DNA from: Staphylococcus phage AH12
DNA: 64,000 bases
Sequence record: OR455461.1
Strand: one strand, 5' to 3'
The notes under the pieces are model-generated. The model saw nothing but the letters and a program-made list of their open reading frames with translations. It did no database searches and was not told where the DNA came from. Made by a program: the position numbers and the translations under genes. This document shows positions 29,013 to 32,956 of the stretch, in pieces (the stretch's first letter is position 1; the number at the start of each line of letters is the position of its first letter).

Positions 29013-29040
29013 CTCAAATTTATAATATATATTTAAAACG
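29013..29040 (-). promoter_or_regulatory. same upstream motif, about 50 nt upstream of the HEG-like gene 26707-28965
   Basis: The motif is recorded under the 25836-25860 feature. Confidence 0.35.
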
Positions 29041-29054
29041 TAAAATAAAATAAT

Positions 29055-29150
29055 CCCAATATCTAATTTAATAGATATTGGGAAATATGTATAAATTAAC
29101 CCTAACCTCTTCGACTAATTCAAAATCAATCTGTAGGTTAGGGTTAATGT
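29055..29150. terminator. two tandem hairpins (CCCAATATCTA..TAGATATTGGG and CCCTAACCT...AGGTTAGGG)
   Basis: The inverted repeats lie downstream of the minus-strand tRNA-like genes. Confidence 0.5.
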
Positions 29151-29519
29151 TACTTTTACGAGAAAAGTATAAAGTTGCTTTAATAATTTTTTATATCCTA
29201 TAAAGCATAAGAAGGATTAAAGAAACCAATATATGCATGGAACATATTAGGAATCTTATAGTGATATTTTAATAGTCTAGTTTTTCTTATATTAGGAACT
29301 AAAACTAGAAAACCTAAAGTGTATTAAAGTCAGATACTTATCACAAATTAATGTAAAATAAGTCCTCTTTAATACTTCTTTTTTAATACTTTTTTACAAC
29401 TAAAGATATGCCTTAACTTTAGTTGAATCTAATAAATTAAGTTTGGCATATCACTTAATTTATATTTTATTTATAGCAGGTCTGCAGCCAAGCTATAAGG
29501 ATGATTAATCCTATAGGGT

Positions 29520-29604
29520 TGTTCCTAATGAGATTCGAACTCATAACCTACAGATAAATTTTAATTCATAAATCTGTACGCTCTGACCATTGAGCTATAG
29601 GAAC
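29520..29604 (-). tRNA. tRNA-like gene (85 nt) with canonical acceptor, D and T arms but a non-canonical, expanded anticodon region (7-bp stem, 16-nt loop)
   Basis: The minus-strand sequence reads GTTCCTA-TA-GCTC-AATGGTCA-GAGC...ATGAG-TTCGAAT-CTCAT-TAGGAAC. The acceptor stem has 7 bp, the D-loop is TAGCTCAATGG and the T-loop is TTCGAAT. The anticodon arm does not fold as 5 bp plus 7 nt. Confidence 0.5.
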
Positions 29605-29964
29605 ATAGAAATTTAAAAAAAAATTAAAAGAGTACATTTATCATCTATGCACTCTTTTAAGTAAATAAATATATAATAATATCTATTAATTTTTAATTAT
29701 ACGTAAGGAGGCGTATGGATTTCTATTTAAAACCATGACATATTAAAAATAGAAACAAGAGAAACCAAAGAAACATTTTTAAACCAACAACGAGTGACAA
29801 AGTAAGTTATAATAGAATTTAATCTATTATATTTTTTAGTTAAATCAAAAACTAAAAAAAATCTATAATAATTTGACGAGAATCATTATAGATTTATACT
29901 ATATAGTTAATTAATATTTTTAAATAAAATTTTTTTAATAAATAGGAATTTTAGACCAAAAAAA

Positions 29965-30034
29965 AGCTTATCCGAGGGATCGAACCCCGGACACATGATG
30001 AAAATCATTGCTCTACCAACTGAGCTAGATAAAC
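29965..30034 (-). tRNA. tRNA-like gene (~70 nt) with canonical acceptor/D/T arms but a shortened anticodon arm (ATGAT-TTTC-ATCAT)
   Basis: The minus-strand sequence reads GTTTATC-TA-GCTC-AGTTGGTA-GAGC-A-ATGATTTTCATCAT-GTGTC-CGGGG-TTCGATC-CCTCG-GATAAGC. The anticodon loop appears to be 4 nt. Confidence 0.45.
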
Positions 30035-30072
30035 TTTCTTCATTATTATAATATATGTTTATATTTCACTAT

Positions 30073-30135
30073 ATTACGCTTTTAATAAATATAATCTTCT
30101 ATATCAATTTCATTTTGTTTAATTGTCATATATTC
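30073..30135 (-). repeat. duplicated 3' end of the beta-prime gene (15 codons MTIKQNEIDIEDYIY + stop), differing from the copy at 31402-31452 only at synonymous positions
   Basis: Alignment of 30088-30135 against 31405-31452 shows 3 mismatches, all synonymous in the beta-prime frame. Both copies are followed by TAA. Confidence 0.8.
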
Positions 30136-31366
30136 CTGAATTATGATAATACAATTTTCTTTTATTATCAAAAATTTTCATGGGTTCTTTGATTTCTATT
30201 TTATCTTTCATTTTTAAATAATGACTATATTTCATATTATCTAAAGAATTTGTTTTTACTTCTTTTTTGATAATATTTTCTAATTTTTCTTTTAAATTAT
30301 AATTTTCATTCTCATATAAAAATACAGTAGAAAATTTATTTTCTAAAAGAAATAGAGCTTTTTCTTGATGATAATATTTATCTTTAAATATTTCTGAATG
30401 CCAGTAAGCTCCATTACATTCGATAGCTATTTTTTCTTTAATATCATCAATATATAAAATTATATCAATTTCTCTTTTACCAATAAATTTATTATTTTCA
30501 ATATGATAACTATAATTTTCGTTGTCTAAAATTTCTTTTAATTCATCCAATACATTAATTTCAAATAATGAACGTTGTTTAGAATTACATTTACAACCTC
30601 TAGGACGATATCTATCATAATTTATATAATCTTTAAAAATAGTATTACATTTATTACATCTAAATGAATATATAAATTCTGAATTTATACCTTTAAATTC
30701 ATCATAAGTGTTTAAAATGTCTATATCATATTTTTTTAATAAATTCTTTAAATTATAATAAGTTTTATTTTTTCTAATTTTATTTAATTTTTCTTTTATG
30801 GTGTCATTTTTCATAGGATTGTCTACACCATATCTATTGATAAAAGATTCTTTTATTATATTTGACATATTAGGTATTTCATAAATATTATTAGCATCAA
30901 ATTTATTTTTTATTTGATCTTTAATATTTATGAAATTCCCATTATTTTTTAAAGTATTATGTGATTTAGAAGATATTACTTTATTTTTCATAGGATTGTC
31001 TACACCATATTTATCAATAAAAGCTTTCTTTCTTTTAATATTAAAATCTTCTATTTTATTCATATTGCTTGTTCCATACTTATCTTTTAAAGTTTTTCTT
31101 CCTTTTTCATATTTTTCAGGATCTTTCATAGAACAACTTCTAGAACAATATACTCCTAATTTATGTTTATTTTTTACAAATTTAACTTTATTTTTTCTAC
31201 AATACTTACAGTAAATTACAGAATTTATATCATTTCTTATATAGTACATTCTTTCAGATAAATTTACATCTTTAAATTCATTTAAAAAATCAGTGTATTT
31301 AATAATATCATTTTTATATTTATTTAAAGCAGGTCCTTTTATTTTCTTAATTTGTTCTAATTGCAT
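30119..31366 (-). mobile_element. free-standing homing-endonuclease gene (415 aa) inserted immediately downstream of the beta-prime stop codon; three KYGVDNPMKN repeats, Cys pairs, Vsr/DUF559-like motif IAIECNGAYWHSE
   Basis: The protein carries 'REIDIILYIDDIKEKIAIECNGAYWH', comparable to Vsr 'RPDIVFP..AIFVHGCFWH', and three 'KYGxDNPMKN' repeats. Its position and the flanking target duplication are recorded under the 30073-30135 repeat. Confidence 0.55.
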
Positions 31367-31401
31367 ATTATCACCCTTTCTAAAATGATAATATATATTT
31401 A

Positions 31402-32956
31402 TTAATAAATATAATCTTCGATGTCTATTTCATTTTGTTTAATTGTCATATCATGGAAAGACTTCATAGAGCTTGTTACAATTGCTTGAGCTACCTGATT
31501 GACTAATAAACCAATATTTTCTATACCTAATTTGTAAGGGAGTTCTCCTGCACATTTACTACAGATATCTTCACTTGCACAATACATAGGACTTCTGAAG
31601 TTCAATACTTTCCCAATATGCTCATCTACATTTGAAGTAGTTAACAGTGTTAATTGACCTTTTCTTCCTGAATTATCTTCAAAATATCTATAAAGTAAAA
31701 GATTCGCATTATCTTTAGTTAAAGTTAATTTTAATGTATGTTTTGTTCTACAATCAGAACCTTGTTTATCTAATACAGTTGTTTGGAAAGCAGACATAAG
31801 TTTTTTAGCTTGATCATTTTATTATCTATATTTTATTATAGATTAGACTATATCTTATGAATTTAATCATTTCTATATTTAGTCGTTGAACAACTTAATA
31901 AAGTTGATGCTAGTTAGTTTTTAACATTCTAGCAATTAATAGAATTTATTGTGAGCATCTAATTTACCCACCTTCTTGAGTCATTTATGTTAATCTATAT
32001 TAATTTAATATAGATCAGACTATATCAAAAACTCTTTATGAGTTTAATTATATTTAGTCGTTGAACAATCATTCTGATTGATGCTGATTAAGTTTATCTC
32101 TTCTCAGCAATTAATAATTTTTCTATTATTACATTACTATAATAAAGGGCATTCATATACCTAAAGCACGTCCAGCTGAACCAGCAGTCATAATGTCTCC
32201 AAACATATATAGTTCTTCTGGATCAATTCCATCAGCTAAAGAACTCTTAGCAATACGTATTTTACTAGGATCAGCGAAGTTTTTATTTGCTCCACGTATT
32301 AATGCAGTTAACTTGAAGTTATTTCCAAAACTACCTCTTGATCCACTATCATAAATATCAAGGTCTGCTAAACCTTCTAATTCTTCTTTACTTAACTTAA
32401 TTAATTCTTTTTCAATAGCACTAATAGCATTCAATTCTTCACCAGGAGTATTTAATGCTTTACCATATTTCTCTAGTAATTCTTCTTTCTTTTGTTTAAC
32501 TTTATCAGGAGCAACCATCATTGTAGTTGTCAAACTAGAATTAATAAATCCTGCTATAGAGAAACCAAGCCATTGAAGTTTATCAATATACATATTCATA
32601 TCTTTAGTTGTAATAACATCATTAAGTAATAAACTAGATAACTCAGATTGTAGATTTCCTACACCTGATCCTCCCATATCTTTATTCATATATCCTATAA
32701 TAGGTCCTATTTTATTGTCTAATATAAATTTATTAAATATATATCTTCCAACTGTTGTTCTTTCATCTTTACTATTATAAACTAAATCTTTTTTAAGTTT
32801 AAATCTATCGCTAGGATTAAACATTGGTTGTGTATTTTGTCTAAATGCAAATAATTCTTTAAGTTTATCAAGAGTAATATCTTCTTTTTTTATACTTAAT
32901 AAAGTTGATACTTCTTTCTCAGATAAATCTTTTTTATCATAAGTCATATTAACCAA
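31402..32956 (-). CDS. RNA polymerase beta-prime-like subunit, C-terminal half, interrupted by two group I introns; proposed exons 32956..32155, 31981..31962 (mini-exon), 31794..31402
   Basis: 'FRSPMYCASEDICSKCAG...IENIGLLVNQVAQAIVTSSMKSFHDMT' aligns to E. coli beta-prime '[21 protein letters not shown]...[25 protein letters not shown]'. 'KQGSDCRT' aligns to 'TEDDCGT'. Exon A ends GRALGI. The mini-exon restores 'YSRRWVN' (compare 'GYLTRRLVD'). The joined exons total 1215 nt and are in frame. Confidence 0.7.
31795..31961 (-). mobile_element. group I intron (beta-prime intron B), ORF-less, ~165 nt
   Basis: Minus-strand core elements are present: P AATTGCTAGAAT, Q AACTAGCATC, R GTTCAACGACTAAAT and S AGATATAGTCT. 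A 5' junction GGTAAAT|TAGATGCTC is also present. Confidence 0.65.
31982..32154 (-). mobile_element. group I intron (beta-prime intron A), ORF-less, ~170 nt
   Basis: Minus-strand elements are P AATTGCTGAGAA, Q AATCAGCATC, R GTTCAACGACTAAAT and S TGATATAGTCT. The 5' junction is GGTATAT|GAATGCCCTTTATTATAGTAAT and the 3' junction is ATAAATG|ACT. Confidence 0.7.

Follow-up and report, generated by a model that had tools for sequence, protein, structure and literature searches.

The 64,000-nucleotide (nt) stretch of Staphylococcus phage AH12 analysed here (sequence record OR455461.1, hereafter the window) carries two tRNA-like genes, T1 and T2, which are located on the same strand between two homing-endonuclease-like open reading frames (ORFs), with a conserved structured RNA of four hairpins (H1-H4) joined to the 3′ side of T1 (Table 1). 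The window is DNA of an AR9/PBS1-like Staphylococcus jumbo phage with a G+C content of ~25%, and around T1 and T2 it is ~92% identical to the phages vB_StaM_PB50 (PB50) and Machias, which are kin of the Bacillus phages AR9 and PBS1. We know of no S. aureus jumbo phages outside the T1-carrying clade, and plasmid transduction is a property of these S. aureus jumbo phages. In the whole window, T1 and T2 were the only Rfam matches at or above the gathering score, both to the tRNA family RF00005.

Table 1. Features of the T1/T2 locus, with positions in the 64-kb window.
Feature	Position	Strand	Details
Homing-endonuclease-like ORF, 415 amino acids (aa)	30119..31366	-	PHROG phrog_3339, E 4e-26; own early promoter 31388-31400
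Early-promoter-like motif AAACATATATTAT	30041..30060	-	motif 30060-30048, 6 nt, G at 30041
T2 tRNA-like gene, 70 nt	29965..30034	-	G1 = 30034, discriminator T = 29965
T2 anticodon arm ATGAT-TTTC-ATCAT	29995..30008	-	5-bp stem, 4-nt loop; 14 nt versus normal 17
Run of 8 T directly 3′ of T2 acceptor stem	29957..29965	-	terminator scan 29993-29969 + tail
Hairpin AAAAGAGTGCAT...ATGTACTCTTTT, then T-run	29615..29658	-	10 nt 5′ of T1; from sequence and alignments
Junction of missing tRNA-Asn(GTT)	29613..29614	-	clean gap, 74 columns in three-way alignment (cf. L001 3657-3728)
T1 tRNA-like gene, 85 nt	29520..29604	-	G1 = 29604, discriminator A73 = 29520
T1 anticodon arm, stem TACAGAT/ATCTGTA	29549..29578	-	7-bp stem; loop TTATGAATTAAAATTT, 16 nt, 29556-29571
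Conserved RNA, four hairpins H1-H4, ~130 nt	29391..29519	-	RNAalifold; covariance model, 148 bits
GC-rich hairpin CCCTAACCT...AGGTTAGGG + T-rich tail	29090..29143	-	conserved in all relatives (alignments)
Homing-endonuclease-like ORF, 752 aa	26707..28965	-	PHROG phrog_3339, E 4e-19; own early promoter 29022-29034, exact motif

Both T1 and T2 are genuine tRNA-derived genes, scoring 60.0 bits (E = 1.8e-10) and 45.8 bits (E = 1.5e-6) with the Rfam tRNA model, respectively, against a gathering score of 29 (E-values for the whole window). From 29604 to 29520, T1 reads GTTCCTA-TA-GCTC-AATGGTCA-GAGC-G-TACAGAT-(TTATGAATTAAAATTT)-ATCTGTA in its 5′ half and GGTT-ATGAG-TTCGAAT-CTCAT-TAGGAAC-A in its 3′ half, with a 7-bp acceptor stem, a D arm of GCTC/AATGGTCA/GAGC and a T arm of ATGAG/TTCGAAT/CTCAT. 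T2 reads GTTTATC-TA-GCTC-AGTTGGTA-GAGC-A-ATGAT-(TTTC)-ATCAT-GTGTC-CGGGG-TTCGATC-CCTCG-GATAAGC-T from 30034 to 29965, with GCTC/AGTTGGTA/GAGC as D arm and CGGGG/TTCGATC/CCTCG as T arm. The bases that make the tertiary contacts of tRNA (U8, A14, G18-G19, A21, T54-T55-C56 and A58) can all be read from the sequence of both genes. A preceding reading made by a model from the letters alone (the sequence-only reading) had described normal acceptor, D and T arms in both genes, which is supported by the Rfam scores and the tertiary-contact bases, and the anticodon arms it described, a 7-bp stem with a 16-nt loop in T1 and a 5-bp stem with a 4-nt loop in T2, agree exactly with the sequence.

Neither gene combines a 5-bp anticodon stem with a 7-nt loop bearing U33 and a purine at position 37, as a canonical tRNA does, and neither is able to work as an ordinary decoder. 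When ARAGORN was used to look for canonical anticodon arms, as the sequence-only reading had advised, both genes were returned as 'tRNA-???' with a 2-base 'anticodon', T2 additionally as 'tRNA-?(Lys|Glu)(tt)', and the T2 arm was drawn alternatively with a 6-nt loop, TTTTCA, on a 4-bp stem. Sequencing errors do not explain the aberrant arms, as Machias and PB50 have T2 copies of 100% identity and a T1 with a different insert. The minimum-energy fold of T1 is the cloverleaf (z = -4.1). CCA is not encoded after position 73 of T1, where the trailer is ACCC, nor in any other member of the T1 family, with trailers of ACC, CGC, CCC, AAC or CCG, which is compatible with processing by RNase Z, as is well established. 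On the antisense strand of the tRNA-like genes, weak matches to the Rfam family 'Plastid-ycf2 5′UTR RNA' were obtained (20–36 bits, threshold 65.7), at 29519-29604 (+) in the window and in the sequences L007, L009 and L010.

The T1 locus was compared in 11 sequences, consisting of the window, nine GenBank phages (Machias, PB50, PALS_2, S6, Madawaska, MarsHill, DC4, LY01 and SA1) and the metagenome contig L014, which together represent ~4–5 lineages independent of each other; genome-wide identity within this clade goes down to ~61% (Korn et al.). All nine GenBank relatives and L014 have a T1 homologue at the corresponding site (11/11 with the window), and in DC4 it persists despite rearranged flanks. 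In L014 and the seven GenBank phages other than Machias and PB50, this site is bordered on one side by the gene encoding the middle portion of virion RNA polymerase beta′, or by genes inserted after it, and on the other by a conserved endonuclease-like ORF of 650–750 aa. Contig L014, a MarsHill/PALS_2-type copy, was the one further T1 copy found in a metagenome scan, and the sole match from a genome scan for distant homologues was a chance one, located within a kinase-like gene (L015). Scans of IMG/VR for T2, the polymerase neighbour and the H1/H2 motif gave no match, and no tRNA-like gene was found alongside the counterpart polymerase gene of AR9, BpSp and Listeria phage LPJP1. The T1 homologues are annotated as pseudo-tRNA-Leu (DC4), as 'tRNA-Ser' (SA1) or not at all (including Machias and PB50). 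The 36-aa coding sequence annotated in MarsHill on the strand opposite the T1 homologue (CPT_MarsHill_163) is probably spurious, and a 94-nt 'tRNA-Phe' of DC4 (L008 2144-2237), called by ARAGORN with anticodon aaa, has no Rfam tRNA match even at E ≤ 1 and is doubtful.

The retention of T1 contrasts with the fate of its decoding neighbour. Machias and PB50 have the gene order T2, canonical tRNA-Asn(GTT) (72.1 bits with the Rfam tRNA model), T1, and a canonical tRNA-Asn directly 5′ of T1 was detected in 5/11 sequences, being absent from the window, DC4, MarsHill, LY01, SA1 and L014. Its presence differs even within near-identical sets (Madawaska versus MarsHill, PALS_2/S6 versus DC4, and Machias/PB50 versus the window). 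As tRNA-Asn is absent in six of the sequences and T1 in none, the true decoder is dispensable whereas the non-decoder was never lost, which is the opposite of what 'degenerating tRNA genes' predict. The tRNA-Asn gap of MarsHill is edged by short TTTAT repeats.

The pairs of T1 were examined in the eight distinct sequences of the set, using 21 pairs of the cloverleaf. Standard pairs occupied 98.8% of the cells, compared with 32–44% when the partners were slid by 1–3 columns, and 8/21 pairs were changed on both sides, a level reached by 0/500 shuffles. Examples of compensatory change are acceptor pairs 5 and 7 (C-G/U-A and A-U/G-C) and the first pair of the T-stem (A-U/G-C), and four of the five anticodon-stem pairs also show such changes. 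The T-loop varies solely at positions 57 (G or A), 59 and 60, with TTC.A fixed, and U8, A14, G18-G19 and A58 are unchanged throughout the family. Within the trio of the window, Machias and PB50, the changes cluster in the anticodon arm, with the rest of T1 nearly invariant. The family members have their GTT...GAACA ends and their T arm in common, which argues for homology over gene swapping, and the comparison as a whole is evidence of selection on the T1 fold. The sequence-only reading had offered a tRNA pseudogene as one explanation, and for T1 such a neutral origin is contradicted by the 11/11 retention, the intact pairs and the eight compensatory pairs; T1 is therefore likely to be a selected, non-decoding tRNA-like RNA.

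A canonical anticodon loop was found in none of the T1-family members, so that the comparison with orthologous loci which the sequence-only reading had proposed returned a non-canonical arm in every related phage. The loop is 16 nt long in the window and 34 nt in Machias and PB50, where the insert forms a continuous helix (rod) of ~21 bp. Six sequences have AGUAAAU with G33, LY01 has AACAAAU with A33 (which would read CAA), and the SA1 homologue has an 8-nt loop, UUUGAAUA (DNA TTTGAATA). The insert differs by several indels between phages that are 92–97% identical. Examined as a possible mobile or repeated element, the Machias insert had no second copy in the window with up to three mismatches allowed, and this candidate was rejected. 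The SA1 homologue (L006 2629-2704) is the one annotated as tRNA-Ser, and its ARAGORN call '(tgaa)' formally resembles a +1 frameshift-suppressor tRNA.

A micro-intron or small insertion or deletion within T1, as also suggested from the sequence alone, did not hold. The anticodons assigned to the orthologues by ARAGORN disagree, being Ile(UAU) in the window, Arg(UCG) in Machias, (tgaa) in SA1 and Leu(taa) in DC4, and its intron option placed an 11-nt 'intron' at 39/40 for the window and one of 29 nt at 37/38 for Machias. Enumerated excisions left UUU in the window and UGG, UUG or UUC in Machias, and no Rfam intron match overlapped T1. Inserts of 13–31 nt are far too short for self-splicing or a group I intron, and to our knowledge bacteria have no tRNA splicing endonuclease. 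The micro-intron was rejected because the anticodons are inconsistent, the insert-free relatives still lack U33 and the insert is too short.

T1 is the 5′ module of a larger RNA, with T1 and H1-H4 together spanning ~215 nt within a non-coding unit of ~500 nt. H1-H4 starts within 7–8 nt of the T1 discriminator in every genome. H1 is invariant (AGGAU/UAAUC/AUCCU), H2 has a 9-bp stem that covaries and a loop that does not vary, GCUGCAGA (DNA GCTGCAGA), and H3 and H4 are covarying stems of ~10 and 9 bp, the loops of which contain the invariant sequences AUAUGCC and GGCAUAU. These two loops (ATATGCC and GGCATAT in the DNA) are mutually complementary and, in the modelled fold, could engage in a kissing interaction. 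RNAalifold returned 35 pairs for H1-H4, 15 of them with compensatory changes, and since the G-U pairs become A-C mismatches on the opposite strand and fit only one strand, H1-H4 is an RNA of the tRNA-sense strand. No Rfam family matches H1-H4, blastn found it only in the nine Staphylococcus jumbo phages, and its covariance model had no other significant match, either elsewhere in the window or around the corresponding polymerase gene of AR9, BpSp and LPJP1 (best E ~0.1). The GC-rich hairpin at 29143-29090 is the likely terminator of the T1-headed unit, judging from its sequence, and is followed on its 3′ side by the exact early-promoter motif of the next gene. Further conserved hairpins are located 3′ of H1-H4, including GGTTTTCTAGTT...AAAACTAGAC at ~29310-29265.

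T2 derives from tRNA-Lys(UUU) and is sublineage-specific. Compared with the canonical tRNA-Lys(UUU) of phage Snenia its D arm is identical and its T arm identical but for one stem position, whereas the anticodon arm is GCTGA-CTTTTAA-TCAGC in Snenia and ATGAT-TTTC-ATCAT in T2. Only the window, Machias and PB50 carry T2, in 100% identical copies; with ~2 differences expected in 70 nt at the local identity of 97%, the absence of differences among three copies is not significant. The early promoter of AR9, defined by experiment and used by the virion RNA polymerase, is AAATATATATTAT-(6N)-G+1 (PMC5312081), and among the matches to this motif in the window 9/12 have G at the +1 place, compared with a G frequency of 12.5%, with the exact copies standing before ORFs. 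The motif upstream of T2, which has one mismatch to the consensus, predicts a leader of 7 nt if it is active. The run of 8 T after T2 looks like a terminator, and would provide a U-rich trailer. RNase Z in Bacillus is favoured by a U-rich trailer. A young pseudogene and an early-expressed tRNA-Lys mimic are about equally likely as explanations of T2.

The homing-endonuclease genes placed on both sides by the sequence-only reading were confirmed, as both ORFs match phrog_3339. A homologous-looking counterpart of the 752-aa ORF is the neighbour in 9/9 GenBank relatives, downstream of the non-coding unit. The 415-aa ORF is part of a 1320-bp cassette that Machias and PB50 do not have at this site. 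The cassette sits 22 nt away from the T2 promoter motif and is edged by a 50-bp direct repeat (30082-30131 and 31402-31451) corresponding to the 3′ end of the beta′ mid-domain gene. The repeat copies differ at three positions, all synonymous (ATA GAC ATC versus ATT GAT ATA), and the arrangement suggests that the endonuclease inserted recently and that its target site was recoded. The tie between the tRNA-like genes and homing endonucleases is circumstantial. The beta′ mid-domain gene is itself split in the window into ORFs at 32153-32956 and 31402-31797 (gap 31798-32152) and is annotated likewise in PB50 and Machias, in line with an intron that has been reported in this gene; in Listeria phage LPJP1 (L013 6227-6822), Rfam group II intron domains D1-D4 and D5/D6 (66 bits) are situated in an 866-nt gap 3′ of the homologous RNA polymerase gene.

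A hairpin comparable to the one 5′ of T1 in the window, which may be either a terminator or a leader hairpin, precedes T1 or tRNA-Asn in every relative. Between T2 and T1, another hairpin, ATACG-CCUCCUUA-CGUAU (29699-29716, minus strand), displays the anti-Shine-Dalgarno-like loop CCUCC. Its stem covaries (AUGGG/CCCGU), the hairpin is conserved in most relatives though not in SA1 and DC4, and TATAAT comes directly after it. Read on the plus strand, this hairpin gives AGGAGG and an ATG, with an ORF that is not conserved (7 codons in the window, ATG-TAA in PALS_2).

We propose that T1 serves as tRNA-type punctuation, or a handle, on the H1-H4 non-coding RNA. Host RNase P would cut at G1 of T1, freeing the upstream tRNA-Asn where it is present, and host RNase Z would cut after A73, a cut proposed because no CCA is encoded, and thereby release H1-H4 with a defined 5′ end; the CCA-adding enzyme may then handle T1 as a tRNA. 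As expected of a processing handle, T1 has a non-decoding tRNA-like fold joined to another conserved RNA. T1 keeps a closed anticodon stem and all the L-shape determinants that RNase P, RNase Z, the CCA-adding enzyme and T-loop modification enzymes recognise, but not the part read by the ribosome, T1 is always joined to the conserved RNA and CCA is not encoded, which together make a handle the most likely role, so that of the explanations raised by the sequence-only reading a processing signal is the best supported for T1, with the processing itself predicted. Transcription of T1 and T2, the RNase P and RNase Z cleavages, the addition of CCA and the function downstream are all inferred from sequence, and for the specific role as an RNase P/RNase Z handle we put the chances at somewhat under even. 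The explanation as a whole, in which T1 is a selected tRNA-like handle heading a non-coding RNA and T2 is either a pseudogene or a non-decoding tRNA-Lys mimic, is slightly favoured over its being wrong. A more far-reaching version, in which T1 with H1-H4 constitutes an undescribed class of phage non-coding RNA and T2 an early tRNA-Lys mimic directed against tRNA-targeting defence, seems unlikely; here the enzymes recruited by T1 would be RNase P, RNase Z and the CCA-adding enzyme, perhaps also an aminoacyl-tRNA synthetase or the retron-like reverse transcriptase of the phage itself, and a structured effector RNA that has kissing loops would in this way be matured, stabilised or primed.

Several observations weigh against the handle proposal or lend weight to the view, published for Machias, Madawaska and DC4, that both elements are neutrally decaying tRNA pseudogenes, remnants of a tRNA set no longer needed. 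Korn et al. describe 'aberrant pseudo-tRNA genes' and tRNA loss in the clade, amounting to simple degeneration, and a pseudo-tRNA is listed at the T1 locus in the DC4 paper. The absence of the canonical tRNA-Asn from 6/11 sequences and the indels in the T1 insert fit such decay, and T2 has a 3-nt deficit in its anticodon arm, a weak acceptor stem, a cloverleaf that is not its minimum-energy fold and no comparative sign of constraint among its three identical copies. The covariation counts of T1 rest on few events, with a shuffle control that overstates significance for related sequences, and tRNA genes swapped in at the T1 site and then damaged might mimic covariation. There is no recognisable promoter immediately 5′ of T1, the late-promoter motif AACA-(6N)-T[A/G] lacks even an AACA on the tRNA strand of the 360 nt between T2 and T1 (searched by eye), and the T-run hairpin at 29658-29615 could stop transcription coming into T1. 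For T2, one single-mismatch motif was inactive for the AR9 polymerase (PMC5312081), and the T2 motif has one mismatch. Neutral decay would, however, be expected to break stems and to delete T1, as happened with tRNA-Asn, and yet T1 is kept down to ~61% genome identity and where the flanks are rearranged (DC4), with its pairs intact and its D-loop/T-loop contacts untouched; T2 likewise retains a correctly spaced promoter motif and a T-run. We regard decay of both elements as an improbable explanation. A role of both as mimics that act as decoys or sponges, an idea also raised by the sequence-only reading, with closed-loop, uncleavable tRNA-Lys/Asn-type bodies titrating tRNA-targeting host defence nucleases or other tRNA-binding proteins, is rated slightly lower still. 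The bodies resemble tRNA-Lys and tRNA-Asn, the classic targets of anticodon nucleases and PARIS, the L-shape is conserved with the loop, which is the cleavage site, closed or replaced, and T2 would be expressed early from the virion-polymerase promoter motif, when defences act. However, most anticodon nucleases recognise the loop itself, as is well established, no cognate defence system was identified, and the fusion of T1 to H1-H4 is left unexplained. The phage counter-measures described in two reports (PMC10264068, PMC11464382) are functional tRNAs having canonical 7-nt loops with point changes, and not mimics that lack a loop.

Two further explanations are far less probable. A role at the level of DNA, as homing-endonuclease target or recombination site, or as a CCA-tailed primer for the retron-like reverse transcriptase of the clade, could draw on the endonuclease-like genes that flank the locus, the cassette so close to the T2 promoter motif and the sharp boundaries of tRNA-Asn presence and absence. 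The retron-like reverse transcriptase is reported in MarsHill, Madawaska and Machias and not in AR9 (Korn et al.), and T1 with H1-H4 was not found near the polymerase genes of AR9, BpSp and LPJP1. The G-U pairs and strand-specific covariation nevertheless indicate an RNA and not a DNA signal, the cassette duplicates the end of the polymerase gene and not a tRNA-like gene, no complementarity to a primer-binding site was found, and a Pfam reverse-transcriptase domain was detected in 0/16 window ORFs scanned, including all those near the reported size of 501 aa; we regard this role as highly unlikely. Least credible of all is that T1 and T2 are functional decoding tRNAs with odd arms, using a spliced micro-intron in T1 or frameshift, doublet or quadruplet reading (the 6-nt loop of T2 and the 8-nt loop of SA1). 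The rest of T1 and T2 is good tRNA, +1 frameshift-suppressor tRNAs with 8-nt loops are well known, and the intron mode of ARAGORN can draw a 7-nt loop for T1, but the intron models of the window and Machias use differing, non-canonical positions and share no anticodon, and the G33, A33, 8-nt or rod-like loops of the other T1 members and the short T2 arm leave this explanation with almost no probability.

The genes themselves are already known and were labelled pseudo-tRNAs in earlier papers on Staphylococcus jumbo phages. Published annotations at this locus are CPT_Machias_173 (which is T2) and CPT_Machias_174, the DC4 pseudo-tRNA-Leu and the SA1 'tRNA-Ser', the latter two belonging to the T1 family; they were treated as unrelated decaying tRNAs, and T1 of Machias and PB50 was left unannotated. 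Compared with the literature examined and with Rfam, what is new is that T1 is retained and covaries across the clade, that it contrasts with a dispensable tRNA-Asn and that a structured RNA is attached to it, and a literature search for phage tRNA-like processing elements found nothing matching T1 with H1-H4. A close likeness is with the tRNA-microRNA-encoding RNAs (TMERs) of murid herpesvirus 68 (MHV68), in which a viral, non-aminoacylated tRNA-like module likewise lies 5′ of conserved hairpins, as is well established. In the TMERs, the RNA polymerase III promoter is inside the tRNA, and host RNase Z releases the downstream hairpins, which are precursor microRNAs. They thus differ in being eukaryotic, transcribed by RNA polymerase III and equipped with precursor microRNA hairpins, whereas T1-H1-H4 is found in a bacterial host and its processing is only predicted. 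The mascRNA of the MALAT1/MEN-beta long non-coding RNAs (lncRNAs) is a tRNA-like fold with a non-functional anticodon arm that is a substrate of RNase P, RNase Z and CCA addition and sets lncRNA ends (PMC8457004). In contrast to T1 it is positioned at the 3′ end of a long RNA, not the 5′ end, and there is no sequence relationship.

Other tRNA-like systems show more partial similarities. YrlA and transfer-messenger RNA (tmRNA) also join an acceptor/T/D module to another RNA domain, as is well established, but there the extra domain replaces the anticodon arm, whereas in T1 it follows the 3′ end. Rfam includes covariance models for Y-RNA-like RNAs and tmRNA; in the window, Rfam gave no match to either and ARAGORN found no tmRNA. 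In the tRNA cluster of phage T4, SegB homing endonuclease genes are interspersed and tRNA-linked stable RNAs are processed by RNase P (established knowledge), but the T4 tRNAs are canonical decoders without homology to T1 or T2. Among phage tRNAs that escape anticodon nucleases or PARIS, the mycobacteriophage tRNAs and the tRNA-Lys of phage T5 provide examples of Lys-type tRNAs with altered anticodon loops which are possibly tied to tRNA-targeting defences of the host (PMC10264068, PMC11464382). Unlike T1 and T2, which cannot decode, these tRNAs retain 7-nt loops and decode.

The few 'tRNAs' of these phages have so far been dismissed as decaying genes. If the handle proposal is correct, T1 would represent, in a virus of bacteria, the equivalent of the tRNA-like processing handles of herpesviruses and mammalian lncRNAs, and the phages would possess a new non-coding RNA of ~200–500 nt with a testable function. 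It would also mean that calls of 'tRNA-???' or 'pseudo-tRNA' in phage genomes can hide selected RNA elements, and the presence of a dispensable tRNA-Asn beside the indispensable non-decoder T1 provides the basis for a direct genetic test.

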